DNA of 32,938 nucleotides from a virus. Position 1 is the stretch's first letter, and each line of letters starts with the position of its first letter. Location: the UHGV virus genome UHGV-2167056; one strand, 5' to 3'. Made by a program: the position numbers and the translations under genes. The notes beneath the pieces were generated by a model. The model had not been told where the DNA came from, did no database searches, and was given only the letters and a program-made list of their open reading frames with translations. Of the stretch, positions 4,575 through 32,705 are shown in pieces.

Positions 4575-5688
4575 AGCTGATCCCCTGTTTTTTCATCTGC
4601 TGGCGAATAAAGGCATCAACATCGTCACCGGAACCACCCCGGCCCTTACTGTCCGGCTCTGCCGGAACGATAAAGCCGTCACGCGGTGCCAGTACCAGCC
4701 GGGTGACTTCCCCGTTATGTTCATCAAGTAAAAACTCCACCTGACAGACCAGCAGTTCAGTCTGTTCTATACCGAAACGCAGGGCTGAAACACCGGTCAG
4801 CAGATTGACATCCCATAACCGGCCATCATCCCGGAACCAGCCACGCACGGTGGCAGAAAACCGTTCTGAACGGGCAATCGCACGGCGCATTTCACGCAGG
4901 GCACGCTGCCGTGCACCGGTGGTGTCTGTCTGTTGATCGGCGAGGATGATTTTCGGCCGGTAGCGGCCGATCTGCTCATCACTGATGACGCCCACAGGTG
5001 CTGCCAGACGGGCGGCGGATTCGCTGTCTCCCCGTTTGCCACCACCGCGCCCGTGTCCCCGGACACGGTATTCGCTGTATCGTCCTCGCCAGTCCGTGTT
5101 GTAATCGGCATCAAGCAGGTTATCTCCCAGCACCAGTCTGTCCGTCTGCTGGCTTCCTGCCTGGGTGAACACCAGATCGCCGTCAGCATTACTGGTCACC
5201 AGCACCCCGCGATGCCGGGCAGCACGGGTCAGCGCATCCGCCACGGTTTCTGAGTTTTCCAGCGTAAAAGAGCTGAAGGGGCGTGCAGCCGTGTCGTCGT
5301 TAACCTGCCAGCGCACGGCTATCCCGAAGGGCGCACATAAATCTGCGGCAATCTGTGCCAGCGTCCGGTTGCGCCACTGGCTGCCGGGATGGATGGCGGC
5401 ACAGTCCACCAGGTCGCCGGTTTTATCCCGACCGCTGATGCTGATCTGATGACGGGTTGCACTGATCCGCTGACTGACCTGATCCAGCCAGCCACTGATG
5501 ACCGTCTGCCCGTTAATTCTGAGCGTCAGGGACTGACCGGTTCGCAGGGCTGAGGGGATGCGCTCACCGGGCAGCATCAGCCCCAGTTCAAACGACCCGG
5601 CCAGATGCTCCAGCGAGCGACGGACGCTGACCGTCAGCCAGCCGGAAAAAATACTGCCACCGATATACAGTTCAATCCTGCTGCTCAC
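4564..5688 (-). CDS. Tail protein, P2 gpD-like / Mu P (gp44)-like
   Basis: 374-aa ORF between the N-like and baseplate genes. Confidence 0.65.
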   Translation of the reverse strand: MSSRIELYIGGSIFSGWLTVSVRRSLEHLAGSFELGLMLPGERIPSALRTGQSLTLRINGQTVISGWLDQVSQRISATRHQISISGRDKTGDLVDCAAIHPGSQWRNRTLAQIAADLCAPFGIAVRWQVNDDTAARPFSSFTLENSETVADALTRAARHRGVLVTSNADGDLVFTQAGSQQTDRLVLGDNLLDADYNTDWRGRYSEYRVRGHGRGGGKRGDSESAARLAAPVGVISDEQIGRYRPKIILADQQTDTTGARQRALREMRRAIARSERFSATVRGWFRDDGRLWDVNLLTGVSALRFGIEQTELLVCQVEFLLDEHNGEVTRLVLAPRDGFIVPAEPDSKGRGGSGDDVDAFIRQQMKKQGISFDE

Positions 5689-25690: not shown

Positions 25691-25974
25691 CAGTGCGTCA
25701 CCTGTCCGTCTTCATCTTCAAGGCAGGCTCCGGTTTCTTCATCAACAAAAAAGCCTTCATACCCCATATGGCCGATGCGCAGCTCCTGACGGTGACCATA
25801 CTGAACAATCAGCACGACAGCCTCCATATCAGGTGGGAAAGCATCATTCAGTGAATGCCAGGGATAACCGCGTAAATCCCCGAAATAAACACCGGTCAGC
25901 GTTCCGCCACAGAGCGGCATTCCGGCGGCACACACAAGAGGTTCATCTGATTCAACAAATAAGGTCGTTATCAT
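25645..25974 (-). CDS. Hypothetical protein, DUF551-like C-terminus
   Basis: 109-aa ORF whose C-terminal VTHWCHISALPE resembles the THWMPLP signature of DUF551 proteins found in prophage early regions. Confidence 0.4.
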   Translation of the reverse strand: MITTLFVESDEPLVCAAGMPLCGGTLTGVYFGDLRGYPWHSLNDAFPPDMEAVVLIVQYGHRQELRIGHMGYEGFFVDEETGACLEDEDGQVTHWCHISALPELREVNA

Positions 25975-26522
25975 GGCGTTAACTCCCGTAATACAGCGTC
26001 CTCGGCAGTCCGGCGACGGTAATAAACTGCGTGAGCAGAATGTTCAGATATTCCAAACTTTTCGCCAATTTCCCGGAATGACAGACGGCGTGGGTAATCG
26101 GAATCACGCAGCGCACGTATAAGACGTACATCATCATCAGATATGCGCGTGCCGGGGCGTAACTCTCCGCACTTTGTTAATCCAGCACCAATCATTCCTG
26201 CCCGACATCTGACAGAATCTTTATTACGTCCGAGATATTCTCCCATTTGCTGGCAGGTCATTGTTCTGGCATTGTTTCGAATAAACTTATCTTCATCAGG
26301 TGTAAATCTTGGGTGTTTATATTTCAGTAACTCCGGGTATGAACTGCGCAATACACCAGTCCGGTTATATACAGCCCAGACAGTTCTTTTTATTCTGGCA
26401 GCAATATCCTTAACCGGGGTGGATGAATAAAGCGCAATCAGCAGCGCATCTTCTTCAGGTGTCCACGGACGGACATGAGCGGGGGCGCGACCTTTTCGCC
26501 CCATGGGTTGTAAAATCATCAT
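25971..26522 (-). CDS. Putative DNA-binding protein with three Myb/SANT-like helix-turn-helix repeats
   Basis: 183 aa with three repeats of the same pattern: RPWTPEEDALLIAL...IAARIKRTVWAV, then RFTPDEDKFIRNN...MGEYLGRNKDSVRCR, then ISDDDVRLIRAL...REIGEKFGISEHSAHAVY. Confidence 0.5.
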   Translation of the reverse strand: MMILQPMGRKGRAPAHVRPWTPEEDALLIALYSSTPVKDIAARIKRTVWAVYNRTGVLRSSYPELLKYKHPRFTPDEDKFIRNNARTMTCQQMGEYLGRNKDSVRCRAGMIGAGLTKCGELRPGTRISDDDVRLIRALRDSDYPRRLSFREIGEKFGISEHSAHAVYYRRRTAEDAVLRELTP

Positions 26523-27719: not shown

Positions 27720-28250
27720 TTATTTATTCAGTCCGGCGTCCTGTTCAAAAGGCTCGACATAAAAACTTTCAGCGCCTTTATTCACCTTGATACCGGCAAT
27801 GCCTTTCACAGCATCCGGCTCCGCCAGGACGGCTTCCTTGTTCACTTCCTCTTTCGTGCGGATGAAACGCTCAAGCCCCATACGGCGCAGCATTTCAATC
27901 ACACCTTCCACATCACGGCTGACGCTGCATGATGGCGTTCCCAGCCGCCATGACACCGTTCCGGTGGTCAGATTGGCTGTTTTGGTTTTGCCGCCGTTCG
28001 TCAGCTCATCACGGTTGGTTTTGCACCAGTCCTGAATCCCTTTAAAAAGCACTTTGATTTGCTTTTTAAGATTTTCAATCTGCGGCGTATAACGGGCGGT
28101 GATTTCTGCCACTTCGTCATTCATCGCCGTTTCCAGGCGCAGCGCCTCTCGCTGAATATCTCCCAGGGTGCGGATATCACGGCTGACTTCTTCCCGGGTC
28201 TGCGGTGCCGCCTCGGCTGCGGCCTTTAATTTTGTAACGCGTTTAGCCAT
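27720..28250 (-). CDS. gam: Host-nuclease inhibitor Gam (Mu Gam / Ku-like DNA-end binding)
   Basis: 176-aa ORF, Mu Gam-like in size and sequence character, at the expected position in the early operon. Confidence 0.85.
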   Translation of the reverse strand: MAKRVTKLKAAAEAAPQTREEVSRDIRTLGDIQREALRLETAMNDEVAEITARYTPQIENLKKQIKVLFKGIQDWCKTNRDELTNGGKTKTANLTTGTVSWRLGTPSCSVSRDVEGVIEMLRRMGLERFIRTKEEVNKEAVLAEPDAVKGIAGIKVNKGAESFYVEPFEQDAGLNK

Positions 28251-28261
28251 TTTGTTTTTCC

Positions 28262-28555
28262 TTATTGCAGTGTGCCTGATGCTTTATGCACGCGGTGGCG
28301 TTTAATGATGGCATCCGCTCCAAAAGACTGTGCAGATGCCTGAAATTCCGCTGAGAGAAACTGAATAATTGCAGGACTGTGATACTGGAGAATACTTGCA
28401 TAAACGTCACAGAGTGACGTCGGCCTGTTATCCGTATCACGTTCTGTTTTCACATCCACTCCAATCTTTTCATGCACTTCAACACAGTCATTGCCTGCCA
28501 ACTTTTCGTCATGCGAAACATGATTAAATTCAAAAATAACGCGTACTTTGCTCAT
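28262..28555 (-). CDS. Small hypothetical protein, tandem paralogue 2
   Basis: Taken from the internal ATG (MSKVRVIFEFNH...); N-terminus paralogous to the adjacent upstream gene (MSKVVRIIFEYKED...); AT-rich. Confidence 0.45.
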   Translation of the reverse strand: MSKVRVIFEFNHVSHDEKLAGNDCVEVHEKIGVDVKTERDTDNRPTSLCDVYASILQYHSPAIIQFLSAEFQASAQSFGADAIIKRHRVHKASGTLQ

Positions 28556-28559
28556 GGAA

Positions 28560-28832
28560 TTACCCCTGTTGATTAAATTCATTACCGTTAATAACCCCGG
28601 AAGCCATGCCTCTGTCTTTCATGAATGCACTGGCTTTCATTGCCACAAACTCTGCGAAGTTTCTGCTTTCTGCCAGCATAACCACCCCAAAAATCATGGC
28701 GGGTCCATTATCTTTCTTCTTTATTCCGGTTGAACGTATATCCAGACTTACCCCTCTGTGCGTGCTGCCATCAGAGTTTTTGCAGATAACATCTTCCTTG
28801 TATTCGAAAATAATGCGTACGACTTTACTCAT
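28560..28832 (-). CDS. Small hypothetical protein, tandem paralogue 1
   Basis: 90-aa ORF; N-terminus MSKVVRIIFEY; 4-nt spacing to paralogue 2. Confidence 0.45.
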   Translation of the reverse strand: MSKVVRIIFEYKEDVICKNSDGSTHRGVSLDIRSTGIKKKDNGPAMIFGVVMLAESRNFAEFVAMKASAFMKDRGMASGVINGNEFNQQG

Positions 28833-29110
28833 CCTCTGGTCCTCGTTCTGTTTGGATAACTGACCCGGCGTCTAACCTCACGGCAGAACCGAATCATGGC
28901 ATTAAAGGCTTCTTCCTCCGTCACCGCTTCCGGTATCCCCGGAACCAGTAACTGCTCCTGTTCATCACGTCCATGACGCGCCATAACCTCAATCACATGC
29001 CGTACCGTGGCAGGCTTTCCGGCAACTATCGGCAATGCACCTTCCGGCAGGACGTAACCAAACTCAATAAGACCACTCGACCACGCCCATGCAATGAGAT
29101 TTTTTTTCAC
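28829..29110 (-). CDS. Hypothetical early protein
   Basis: 93-aa ORF, 4-nt overlap with the downstream gene. Confidence 0.4.
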   Translation of the reverse strand: MKKNLIAWAWSSGLIEFGYVLPEGALPIVAGKPATVRHVIEVMARHGRDEQEQLLVPGIPEAVTEEEAFNAMIRFCREVRRRVSYPNRTRTRG

Positions 29111-29111
29111 C

Positions 29112-29378
29112 TCACACCTCCCAGTAAACCGTGCAGCCGCTGATGCGGGTGGCCTTCACACGGCGGCGCAGGCCGTTGGTCTGTATGGTGATTTCAATTT
29201 CACCGGTTCCCTGCACGTTGCCTACCGGCGGCGTGGTTTTCAGTGCAAAACGTTGCGGATAGCGCTTACTGCGTTCCAGTACCGCACCGGCAAGTTCGGT
29301 CAGACGGCGCGCGCTGTTCAGGGAGTCGAATAAATTCATTTTGTTACCGCAGGATTGCATATTCATATAACACCTCAT
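29112..29378 (-). CDS. Hypothetical early protein
   Basis: 88-aa ORF in the tightly packed early operon; start uncertain. Confidence 0.35.
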   Translation of the reverse strand: MRCYMNMQSCGNKMNLFDSLNSARRLTELAGAVLERSKRYPQRFALKTTPPVGNVQGTGEIEITIQTNGLRRRVKATRISGCTVYWEV

Positions 29379-29606
29379 TTAGCTGACTTGTTTCGCACCA
29401 ACAGAACGGCATATTCCGCTGTAAACTTCTGTCGCACCTTCGCGATCAAGTCCGGCAGATATCACCATTCGTGTGCGGTCATTAAATTCAAAAAGTAAAT
29501 CGCCACATTCTTTATTTTCGGCCAGTGAAATCACCTTCACGTTATCGAAATTAACCAGGTAAAAGCGTCCGTAAATATCAGGAATATTAAATACCGCCAT
29601 AATCAC
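29379..29606 (-). CDS. Hypothetical small early protein at the position of Mu kil
   Basis: 75-aa ORF immediately downstream of B with a 4-nt overlap; the assignment is positional only. Confidence 0.4.
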   Translation of the reverse strand: MIMAVFNIPDIYGRFYLVNFDNVKVISLAENKECGDLLFEFNDRTRMVISAGLDREGATEVYSGICRSVGAKQVS

Positions 29607-30544
29607 ACCTGTGAGAGTAATTCAGGGTTGGTATAAACCTCTTTAAAGGCCGCATTAATATGTTTTTCTGTCAGCGCCGCGCCTTCACCGCTGGCGGTGA
29701 GCCACGCCTGGTTAAGCGTATGTGTCAGAACGCGTAACGCTCCCGGTTTTTCAGCGATAGCCTGCATGACGGCCAGCTCGGCCTCACCACTGATACCCCA
29801 TGCCCTGGCAATGGCCAGCACATCCGCCTTTTTAGCCTTGCGAAGTTGTTTTGTACGGGCAAGACGACTGAACAGGCGCGATAAGTCATCAACGGCGCGG
29901 CGTCCACCCTTAAACAGTCCGCGCGGGTTACCAATAAGCACCATCCCGATCCCCGTGGCGTCCTGGATTGCACGCAGTTGTTCCAGACCGTCAATACCCA
30001 GATGATCCGCCTCATCCACAATCACCAGCCCACGCGTTCCCGTCAGGCGACGGCGGATGGCGCGGGATAACGCCCCCTTGTTCGCGCGGGTGTAATCAAT
30101 CCCCAGCGCATCGGCCAGCTCCAGCAGACACTCCGTGACGCTGGAGTGCGCGGGTGACAGGGTGATCATCCAGGTGTTTGGTTGCTCCTGGCAGTAATTA
30201 CGGGCAGTGGCCGTTTTACCCACACCCGGTACGCCCACAATAACGTTAATACAGCCCATCAGGCGAACCGCCTGAAACAGTGCGCGCAGCTCCTGGACTG
30301 TCTGAGTTTCCACAAACTGCGGCGGTTCCGGCAGTGCGCTTTGTTTATTCCAGTTCTCATACCAGGAGCGCAGGGAAGCAGCCACAGCAGCGTTATCGCC
30401 TTTATATTTTCCCTTACGGAAAGCCGATAATGTGCCGTCGGAAATTCCCGCCTCTCTGGCGATGGCATACTGCGTCAGTACGCCGCCATCAATAAGTTCA
30501 TCAATGGTCTTGATTACATCGTTAATATCGGTCATATTATTCAC
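29603..30544 (-). CDS. B: DNA transposition ATPase MuB-like (AAA+ target-DNA activator)
   Basis: 313-aa ORF; N-terminal HTH-like region resembling the MuB N-terminus (DGTLSAFRKGKYKGDN); Walker A GVPGVGKT; Walker B-like VIVDEADHL. Confidence 0.9.
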   Translation of the reverse strand: MNNMTDINDVIKTIDELIDGGVLTQYAIAREAGISDGTLSAFRKGKYKGDNAAVAASLRSWYENWNKQSALPEPPQFVETQTVQELRALFQAVRLMGCINVIVGVPGVGKTATARNYCQEQPNTWMITLSPAHSSVTECLLELADALGIDYTRANKGALSRAIRRRLTGTRGLVIVDEADHLGIDGLEQLRAIQDATGIGMVLIGNPRGLFKGGRRAVDDLSRLFSRLARTKQLRKAKKADVLAIARAWGISGEAELAVMQAIAEKPGALRVLTHTLNQAWLTASGEGAALTEKHINAAFKEVYTNPELLSQV

Positions 30545-30617: not shown

Positions 30618-32705
30618 TCAGGCCAGCGGATCACTTTCTTTTAATTTCGCTTCGAGCAGTTGCAATCCCCGCTGGAAATTACGCTCGTATTCTTCATCAG
30701 GTTCATCGTCAGCGACCGGTTGCTGAACGGTCACCGTATTACCCACAGGGCGGTATATGTTTTCCAGCCAGGGCTCCTGCGGCTTGTGCTCCAGCACGTT
30801 GACAACCTCATCCTCGGCATCACGGATTTTTTCCTCTGCGCGTTTACGCATGCCTTTAAGGCGCTGCTGCTGTTTGTAGTATTCCGCGCTGACAGGGAAG
30901 GCTTCGCGTTTATTGCCGTCCCATACCGCCTCGCAAATCACGCTGCCATCCGGGCGGCGCACGGTAATTCGTTCGGCATCATGAATGTCATAGCTGATAA
31001 GTACCTTACGGCCATGCTCGTCACGCAGCTCGGGCGCGTAGTAAATATTATTCAGCCAGCGTATTTCACAGCGTCTTACAGGGCGCTCCACCATCGGCCG
31101 GAACATATCCCGCAGTTCAACATCGGACAGCCATTCAATTTCCGTGTCCTCTTCCGCCAGGCGTTTTTTTCTGAACTCCGCCGGGCTGTAATGTTTACCG
31201 TTCGGCTTCATGGGTAATTCATCGTGCGGCCGGTTGTTGTACCACTCAACACCGTCACGAATGGCATCAATCAGTTCAGACCAGGACGGTAAATCACGCA
31301 TCGCTGACTGCTGCCGGGCGTTCAGCCGTTTGCCCTGTTGCAGGGCACTGAATGCCGAGCGTAAATCGCGGTTGGTTTTACGTAACGTCTCGCGATCTGC
31401 TCCTTTCCCGAAATAGGTGCGGTATTTACGGGCTATGCGCATCGGTAATGTGCGGTTAAGCCGTTCGATAATGCCCCGTCCCTGCGGATTACCGGCAATC
31501 CCTGTCGGGTGATTAATCCCCAGTCGTGGCAGTATCCCCACAATCTCCTTATCCAGGACGTCGGCGGTTTCCCCGGAGCCATTATCCGAGTAATACAGAA
31601 ACGGTTTGCCATGATGGCGAATACCGTGCTGTATGGCACCGGCTACGGCGAAAACATTTTCAGCCAGGTCAAGGCTCCAGCCCACCACAAAGCGCGTGCC
31701 ACCGTCGATAACAAAGGTCACTTCCGGTGCGAATGGCCGCCCGTGAACCGGGTGCGCGCATTTCAGCTTCATGCCGTGACCGTCACCAATCCAGACATAA
31801 TTCACCGGCATTCTGGACCAGTCGCGGCGCGTGAATCCCTCAAGCTGACGGTATTCACTGCCAGTTACCCGGCCTTTTTGTTTCACCACTTCCGGCAGTT
31901 TCTTCATTGCGCGGCGAATGGTGTCATAAGAGGGCATGATATCGAGCATATAAGGCTCATCAGCGTGCCGGTGCTGCCATTCAGCAACAAAATCCTCGTA
32001 AGCCTCGGTCATTGGTCGGCCGTTTGACTGGCGATGCTGCGCCAGAAATTCGGGCAGCCAGTTAATATCTTCGGCTTTTATTTCCTGGCGTTTACCCGGT
32101 GCCAGTAAAAGCAGGCGTTCAGCGGCGTTCTGTGCCTTGTTAAAGGCCGCAATCCAGCGTTTCAGCGTGATTTCACTCAACGCACGGCTGTTTCCCTTTT
32201 TGGCGTTCGCCGTCTCAACCATTGCCACAATGCGCTCGTCCAGTTGCGAACGTGCCAGGTTGTCAACGATAAACCGGATAGCCTTCGCACAGCTGAAACC
32301 AGGTTGTTGCGCGACTTTCAGAACTTCGCTGACGATCGCGATTCGTGCATCAGCCACCTGGCGCTGGTTTTCAGTCAGGGCATTGAGGCGTTCGACCATC
32401 AGTTGTGGTGATCCGCGATATGCCTCCACCGCATCAACCACGGCAGACGAGCGTCTGGCCTTTGTCACCACCGGAGCCGGTGATTCATCGGCTTTTTGCG
32501 TCATCAGTTGCAGGGCATAACGTTCGCGTAATGCCTGCTGTGTCACTTCAGGTAAACAGTCAATGCTGTATTCAAAACCTTTAGCGCCTTTCTTGCGGCG
32601 TCTGCTGGTTTCGCTGGTTGCATACTTCCTGATTGAATAGCGAACGCCTTGCTCCGTTCCCGGCATCCCCGGTAATCCAACCAGTTCTTTGACTGAAGCA
32701 AACAT
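30618..32705 (-). CDS. A: DDE transposase MuA-like
   Basis: 695-aa ORF; N-terminus (VKELVGLPGMPGTEQGV) resembles the MuA enhancer-binding domain; immediately downstream of ner. Confidence 0.9.
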   Translation of the reverse strand: MFASVKELVGLPGMPGTEQGVRYSIRKYATSETSRRRKKGAKGFEYSIDCLPEVTQQALRERYALQLMTQKADESPAPVVTKARRSSAVVDAVEAYRGSPQLMVERLNALTENQRQVADARIAIVSEVLKVAQQPGFSCAKAIRFIVDNLARSQLDERIVAMVETANAKKGNSRALSEITLKRWIAAFNKAQNAAERLLLLAPGKRQEIKAEDINWLPEFLAQHRQSNGRPMTEAYEDFVAEWQHRHADEPYMLDIMPSYDTIRRAMKKLPEVVKQKGRVTGSEYRQLEGFTRRDWSRMPVNYVWIGDGHGMKLKCAHPVHGRPFAPEVTFVIDGGTRFVVGWSLDLAENVFAVAGAIQHGIRHHGKPFLYYSDNGSGETADVLDKEIVGILPRLGINHPTGIAGNPQGRGIIERLNRTLPMRIARKYRTYFGKGADRETLRKTNRDLRSAFSALQQGKRLNARQQSAMRDLPSWSELIDAIRDGVEWYNNRPHDELPMKPNGKHYSPAEFRKKRLAEEDTEIEWLSDVELRDMFRPMVERPVRRCEIRWLNNIYYAPELRDEHGRKVLISYDIHDAERITVRRPDGSVICEAVWDGNKREAFPVSAEYYKQQQRLKGMRKRAEEKIRDAEDEVVNVLEHKPQEPWLENIYRPVGNTVTVQQPVADDEPDEEYERNFQRGLQLLEAKLKESDPLA

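Follow-up and report, generated by a model that had tools for sequence, protein, structure and literature searches.

Introduction

Gnarl2 (orf63) is the product of the Mu early gene also known as gp7, E6, or Mup07 (NP_050611.1, Mu 4784-5047; Silas et al., Nat Commun 2025, PMC12373910), and was named only in 2025, when a protein of approximately 90 amino acids (aa) that is not an enzyme was found to alter the O-antigen. In the present study, we describe two adjacent open reading frames (ORFs), designated A and B, that are located immediately upstream of gam in the virus genome UHGV-2167056. The whole stretch of 32,938 nucleotides (nt) that was analyzed, hereafter referred to as the window, is an almost complete Mu-like prophage with its genes on the minus strand. 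Profile comparisons indicate that A and B are not orphan genes, but a doubled, fast-evolving version of the Gnarl2 accessory gene.

The expression of gnarl2 alone in wild Escherichia coli shifted the O-antigen bands of lipopolysaccharide (LPS) downward and sensitized the strains ECOR1 and ECOR22 to phage T5 by 10^5-6-fold, while ECOR3 was not among the strongly affected host-gene pairs listed for this gene (PMC12373910). The same authors reasoned that proteins of this small size, not being enzymes themselves, probably act by interfering with the O-antigen enzymes of the host (PMC12373910). In addition, gnarl2 was counted among the genes that are lethal in some hosts (preprint 10.1101/2023.04.06.535777). 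Later papers in the literature that we searched added no mechanism for Gnarl2.

An earlier note on the window, made from its letters alone, had described A and B as a tandem pair of paralogous small genes that have nearly the same N terminus, are AT-rich relative to the phage core, and lie in the Mu semi-essential early region, and had suggested that they were diversified under selection in a setting of host takeover and anti-defence, for example as two inhibitors of related host targets. It named profile searches, structure prediction, and a survey of copy numbers as checks, and all three were performed in the present study. The description of the locus was borne out, in that two ORFs of 90 and 97 aa lie side by side on the minus strand upstream of gam, their GC contents (0.429 in A and 0.435 in B) are low relative to gam (0.525) and the window (0.547), and genes for a MuB-like ATPase and for Kil-like, Gam, gp11-like, and gp12-like proteins surround them. 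What the note proposed about kinship, setting, and selection is qualified below.

Results

Relationship of A and B to Mu gp7

The positions of the two genes and of their conserved first codons are as follows.

28560-28832, minus strand: ORF A, 90 aa, starting MSKVVRIIFEY; isoelectric point (pI) 9.25; no transmembrane segment
28803-28832, minus strand: codons 1-10 of A (MSKVVRIIFE), the conserved first beta-strand common to B and the wider family
28262-28555, minus strand: ORF B, 97 aa, starting MSKVRVIFEF; pI 6.27; no transmembrane segment
28526-28555, minus strand: codons 1-10 of B (MSKVRVIFEF), invariant in the protein and nearly invariant at synonymous sites

Searches of Pfam, NCBIfam, and PDB sequences with A and B gave no match, and neither protein matched the Phage_Mu_Gam profile PF07352 in Pfam at E values up to 0.1, with only the downstream 176-aa gene doing so. 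Both proteins were assigned to families without a function label, A to phrog_4107 (E 1.7e-54, residues 1-90 of 90) and B to phrog_2230 (E 1.8e-38, residues 3-97), and both families appeared to be confined to E. coli. An exhaustive HMMER search with the profile of A against 1.84 billion representatives found no distant relative, only fragments of the A family together with spurious repeat or immunoglobulin (Ig)-like matches; therefore, A is a very narrow family. One of the proteins matched, P0076 (277 aa), is eukaryote-like, of Ig type, and repeated; its segment VVRLICEYNETVIWKNSTGK is similar to the first hairpin of A (E 7e-4), which was judged to be a chance likeness of two beta-hairpins.

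Regarding B, a single gene of 85-88 aa with a MAKVIIE start was found upstream of gam in Kluyvera and in an Enterobacteriaceae genome, and the proteins of this class, hereafter YK, matched phrog_2230 at E values of 1e-13 to 1e-15. The Yersinia phage vB_YpM_5, a Muvirus with the Mu gene order, carries a YK-type gene (gp14) exactly at the position of gp7, and Mu gp7 itself matched phrog_2230 weakly (E 0.009), over the full length of gp7. More members were collected from IMG/VR prior to local hhalign comparisons. A scan of metagenomes added just two YK-type loci. B aligned with the YK class at a probability of 95-97% (E 7e-8 to 1e-10; best run 97.0%, E 1.1e-10, 76 columns), and the YK class with the Mu gp7 class at 87.3% (E 3.8e-6, 70 columns). 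A profile that combined B and YK was matched by the Mu gp7 class at 89.7% and by A at 90.5%.

An iterative HMMER search was run over 6,386 ORFs from 142 loci and the window. Starting from either B or YpM_5 gp14, the search converged on the four classes B, YK, Mu gp7, and A, with none of the approximately 6,180 other ORFs included, and the best unrelated sequence had an E value of at least 1. A, B, and Mu gp7 are all 87-97 aa in length without a transmembrane segment (predicted models cover A and B, with low and moderate confidence, respectively), and A and B are located in the Mu-type early operon, after the MuB gene and kil and before gam. Taken together, these results place Mu gp7, YK, B, and A in one superfamily as judged by sequence profiles, with homology to Mu gp7 running through intermediates. 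Current classifications divide this very divergent family into at least three unrelated PHROGs.

A and B are also genuine coding genes. Intact copies of both were found in approximately 40 independent loci, drawn from IMG/VR and from E. coli genomes, with a mean pairwise ratio of nonsynonymous to synonymous substitution rates (dN/dS) of 0.29 (A) and 0.35 (B), and the Prokaryotic Genome Annotation Pipeline (PGAP) annotates both in more than 200 genomes. Of 5,426 complete E. coli genomes, 233 (approximately 4%) contain the same block, including that of O157:H7 Sakai, which annotates it as "prophage Sp18, Mu-like phage" with A as ECs_4950 and B as ECs_4951. The Sakai copy of A (L143, 1525-1797) starts with GTG, not ATG. 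The list of ORFs also allows a B of 106 aa from an upstream ATG (28582); the form of 97 aa is that in the RefSeq annotation of identical loci and agrees with the conserved MSKV/MAKV start of the relatives.

Ancient paralogy of A and B

When A and B are aligned, they agree in nine of the first 10 residues and, in the DNA, in 24 of the first 27 nucleotides. Beyond this 5' end, DNA identity falls to a near-random 35-40%, the upstream regions are unrelated, and no DNA repeat of 14 nt or longer links the two genes. At the protein level, BLASTP aligned A and B at 22% identity over 76 aa (E 6e-4). The A and B families were aligned by hhalign at a probability of 85-87% (E 4-6e-6) over 33-42 columns, and a profile of B plus its relatives extended the alignment with A to 72-73 columns at approximately 90% (E 1.3-1.9e-6). 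Thus, the similarity is not confined to a few N-terminal residues.

The AlphaFold model of A, which is of low confidence (predicted local distance difference test, pLDDT, 51), has strands at 3-18, 24-34, and 45-51 and a helix at 57-73, and the model of B, which is of moderate confidence (pLDDT 72.5), has strands at 4-21, 24-39, and 49-55, a helix at 61-77, and a further strand at 81-86. The order strand-strand-strand-helix is common to both. The model of A was too poor to serve as a query for a fold search.

Sequence and profile evidence thus indicates that A and B are true paralogues over most of their length, and that their duplication is ancient, since it has left no trace in the DNA. Unlike the other classes, A and B have one arginine and an N-terminal extension of two residues in common, which favours a duplication within the Sp18-like lineage. 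A recent duplication or gene conversion was rejected because no repeat of 14 nt or longer was present and the 5' identity of 24/27 is approximately what nine shared residues impose. The earlier claim of a paralogous tandem pair was accordingly upheld for homology, which extends well beyond the first 15 residues, but not as a recent event. A toxin-antitoxin pair was also considered and dropped, because A and B are homologues of one another and neither matches a toxin-antitoxin family.

Copy number and exchange at the gp7 slot

A single member of the family was found in all 20 Mu-type and all 15 YK-type loci, and the A-B pair in every intact Sp18-like locus; two copies occur only in the Sp18-like lineage. 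Twenty-one more distantly related Mu-like prophages (Gilliamella, Pseudomonas, and others) keep the MuB gene and gam but have no member of the family.

The gp7 slot is a cassette site. Five loci, L113-L116 and L027 (vB_YpM_5, MT374853), are approximately 100% identical to Mu in kil, gp8, gp9, gam, and gp11, and carry in the gp7 slot (locus positions 2501-2770) a YK-type protein without BLAST-level similarity to Mu gp7, which represents a clean swap between near-identical Mu genomes.

Three rare, irregular forms of the pair were noted. In L065 (2902-3294), B is present alone, preceded by the upstream flank of A, with A and the 93-aa gene that otherwise precedes it missing; in L068 (2700-3190), both A and B are frameshifted; and P0030 is a natural fusion in which residues 1-49 of A are joined to residues 79-97 of B.

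Variation among alleles

Across Sp18-like loci, identity to the window is 79-100% for A and 57-100% for B, against 93-100% for Gam and, with the exception of one locus (82%), 96-100% for MuB. The dN/dS ratios of A and B are approximately 3-fold the value of 0.10 obtained for MuB and Gam. B occurs in two allele classes that are 60% identical to each other and A in four, and the classes of A and B are found in nearly all combinations, indicating independent reassortment. Most of the variation falls within residues 11-40, which form the hairpin, and within the C-terminal tail; in these parts, the ratio of nonsynonymous to synonymous polymorphism (pN/pS) is 0.45-1.0, and the first strand is near-invariant at 0.00-0.08 (0.08 in codons 1-11 of A). 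In the first 10 codons of B, pN is 0.000 and pS is 0.015, even between the allele classes that are 60% identical, and these frozen synonymous sites may mark a recombination boundary or a constraint on translation initiation.

Neighboring genes

The other features of the block are listed below.

27720-28250, minus strand: gam, the downstream anchor, encoding the host-nuclease inhibitor Gam, 176 aa; PF07352, E 5.5e-42; 57% identity to Mu Gam
28829-29110, minus strand: early gene of 93 aa that precedes A; phrog_1518, with the label "host nuclease inhibitor"; ECs_4949 in Sakai
29112-29378, minus strand: Kil-like early gene of 88 aa; phrog_2679; 33% over 39 aa to Mu Kil, E 1e-4 (weak)
29379-29606, minus strand: 75-aa early gene; phrog_3375, without a function label; AT-rich (GC 0.417); variable
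29603-30544, minus strand: MuB-like AAA ATPase, the upstream anchor of the accessory block; 49% identity to Mu B
30618-32705, minus strand: transposase; 22% identity to MuA
25971-26522, minus strand: 183-aa protein; phrog_323 (D5-like regulator), the same PHROG as Mu gp9

Following transcription, the genes of the window are arranged in the order transposase, MuB, 75-aa gene, Kil-like gene, 93-aa gene, A, B, gam, gp11-like gene, and gp12-like gene; the Mu order for comparison is B, kil, gp6, gp7, gp8, gp9, and gam. The stop codon of the 93-aa gene overlaps the start of A (ATGA), the gap between A and B is 4 nt, and that between B and gam is 11 nt. No promoter-like or terminator-like site was found on the coding strand from MuB to gam. 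The sole coding-strand promoter-like site lies downstream of gam and is no more than expected by chance, and an Rfam search of the block gave no credible RNA family match. Because of this tight packing and the lack of promoter-like or terminator-like sites between MuB and gam, the A-B block is read as part of the early operon.

Identities to the Mu counterparts are uneven (transposase 22%, MuB 49%, Gam 57%, gp11 68%, and gp12 54%), and the divergence of the early region from Mu is thus mosaic. Mu gp8 has no counterpart between the MuB gene and gam in the window, and the phrog_323 protein is located downstream of the gp12-like gene here and upstream of gam in Mu, which represents a rearrangement.

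Two other genes of the block were observed to vary. The 93-aa gene has no Pfam or NCBIfam support for its label, is exchanged for other cassettes in some prophages (H44 and H45), and in locus L004 is located downstream of the E6-like gene, not upstream. The 75-aa gene after MuB is 75-99% identical among loci with a dN/dS of 0.21, and its locus may be a second hypervariable accessory slot.

Discussion

Based on these results, we give an even chance to the reading that A and B arose by an ancient duplication within the Mu E6/gp7 (Mup07, Gnarl2) family and have the envelope, in particular the O-antigen, as their target area. From the anatomy of the locus, A and B would be co-transcribed with the transposition genes from the early promoter, and their translation is probably coupled because the gaps to the neighboring genes are short or overlapping. 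Such early-operon expression implies that the proteins would be made on induction or infection, and not in the repressed lysogen. Each is predicted to be a soluble protein of approximately 10 kDa with a strand-hairpin-strand-helix core and no enzymatic signature, which most likely acts by binding a host protein. Since Gnarl2 shifts O-antigen bands and sensitizes some strains to T5, homology points to O-antigen or LPS biosynthesis, or another envelope pathway, as the area in which A and B most likely have their target. The invariant first strand may hold the fold, with the variable hairpin and C-terminal parts possibly setting target specificity, and two copies with independently reassorting alleles would widen the range of host variants acted upon. 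The setting of host takeover and anti-defence proposed in the earlier note was thus supported in so far as A and B fall into the family of the host-modifying Gnarl2 (PMC12373910), but the only lead is to the O-antigen of the envelope, not to classical intracellular defence.

Several points weigh against this reading. The relationship of A and B to Mu gp7 appears to be real but remote, and is transitive via the YK class: BLASTP found no match for A or B among Mu gp5-gp14, direct hhalign of the A or B family with Mu gp7 or its class gave a probability of less than 2%, and HMMER seeded with Mu gp7 or A alone failed to expand within the 6,386 ORFs. The model of A is of low confidence (pLDDT 51), and the fold predictions cover A and B. 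At 20-25% identity, function may have changed. The affinity purification-mass spectrometry (AP-MS) of Gnarl2 gave no clear partner (PMC12373910), and its O-antigen effect could be indirect. Regarding selection, the deep allele classes, the elevated dN/dS, and the reassortment of alleles agree with the diversification proposed in the earlier note, but no gene region has a dN/dS clearly above 1, and relaxed constraint combined with recombination could explain the variability of A and B. Furthermore, two O157:H7 strains, Sakai and F8492, differ in the allele class of both A and B, so that the alleles do not simply track the O-type of the host, and a simple match of allele to serogroup was ruled out.

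The alternative that survives best, which we consider possible, if clearly the lesser of the two, is that A and B are proteins of the E6 superfamily with a host target other than that of Gnarl2, such as intracellular anti-phage systems or nucleases, acting alongside Gam, and that the O-antigen phenotype is not conserved or is indirect. A and B are flanked by gam on one side and by the gene with the label "host nuclease inhibitor" on the other, counter-defence loci typically show deep allele classes and an exchange of cassettes, and the very low identity to Gnarl2, the independence of allele classes from O-serogroup, and the AP-MS result described above all fit a different target. On the other hand, A and B have no similarity to any known anti-defence protein or to any Pfam, NCBIfam, or PDB entry, and the only experimental phenotype of the family is related to the envelope (PMC12373910).

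A role in the replication or transposition of the phage itself, such as the modulation of MuB, Gam, or the transpososome in place of host takeover, is improbable. The genes would be co-transcribed and are probably translationally coupled between the genes for MuB and Gam, and several replication-enhancing phenotypes known from classical genetics were located, with poor mapping, in this region. Nevertheless, Mu genomes that are otherwise nearly the same differ in the gene that occupies the slot, the 21 distant Mu-like prophages with the MuB gene and gam lack the family, and one locus has lost A, which together argue for accessory, not core, genes; moreover, Gnarl2 alone confers a phenotype on the host without the phage (PMC12373910).

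We regard it as very improbable that A and B are minimal proteins with an RNase H-like fold that bind or cut nucleic acid. A and B did not conform to the YqgF/RuvX-type fold, which consists of a five-stranded mixed sheet with flanking helices and conserved catalytic carboxylates: 90-97 aa is too small for the full five-strand fold, no catalytic set of carboxylates is conserved (D81 of B, for example, is lost in allele class B2), and the model of B is only of moderate confidence. The explanation that the common N terminus is a chance or translation-signal likeness of unrelated ORFs, or that the ORFs are not genes, is refuted, despite the low identity of A and B past residue 11 and the synonymous conservation of the first 10 codons of B, which may be a nucleotide-level signal, because profile-profile alignments span 33-73 columns, iterative HMMER joins the families without false positives, the predicted secondary structures have the same order, and both the dN/dS values well below 1 in approximately 40 loci and the PGAP annotations attest to genes.

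Returning to A and B as members of the Gnarl2 family with the envelope as their target area, an extension that we consider unlikely, albeit less so than a role in replication, is that the gp7/E6 slot of enterobacterial Mu-like phages is a hypervariable "specificity cassette" locus, in which Mu gp7, YK, B, and A would each recognize a different variant of a polymorphic host protein of envelope biosynthesis, such as the serotype-specific O-antigen machinery. In that case, a second cassette would have given the Sp18-like lineage two specificities at once or a heteromeric A-B pair, the latter being considered because the charges of A and B are opposite. If this extension is true, the natural alleles would allow the target and the recognition code of Gnarl2 to be mapped. 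More generally, the divergent family members, their swaps at one slot between near-identical Mu genomes, and the two reassorting copies represent a natural series of variants with which to find the target and the determinants of specificity. The present study also gives a testable role to two "hypothetical proteins" of a prophage (Sp18 of Sakai) in a major pathogen, and, if the envelope function is true, prophage induction could alter the surface and the phage susceptibility of Shiga-toxin-producing E. coli.

Comparison with known systems

Mu gp7 (Gnarl2) resembles A and B as a small (87 aa), soluble early protein in the slot between kil and gam, in the conserved first strand M-A/S-K-V-I/V-I-x-E, in a collinear full-length profile alignment through intermediates, and in behaving as a variable accessory gene. 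It differs in that direct hits from A and B are absent, with the YK class providing the only link, in being single in Mu and a tandem double here, and in being acidic (pI 5.6), in contrast to the basic A (pI 9.25); moreover, it is for Mu gp7 only that the effects on the O-antigen and on T5 sensitivity were shown. The YK proteins of vB_YpM_5 (gp14), Kluyvera, and Enterobacteriaceae prophages have the PHROG of B (phrog_2230), the same slot, a length of 85-89 aa, and a MAKVIFEF-type start, but are present in one copy per phage, are just 20-25% identical to B, and are uncharacterized.

Considering genomic organization, the hypervariable anti-CRISPR and anti-defence slots of Pseudomonas Mu-like phages are similar in that small genes, unrelated or deeply divergent, are exchanged between close relatives at a fixed slot with conserved flanks. 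These slots are located in the late region, and they differ from that described here in their position, their proteins, and their demonstrated function. In terms of function, Gnarl1, Gnarl3, and Iap of Pseudomonas phage D3 are also very small, non-enzymatic phage proteins that disturb O-antigen or LPS synthesis in the host, with Gnarl3 binding GalU and Iap blocking the O-antigen polymerase (PMC12373910); they come from other phages and other genomic contexts and are functional analogues only.
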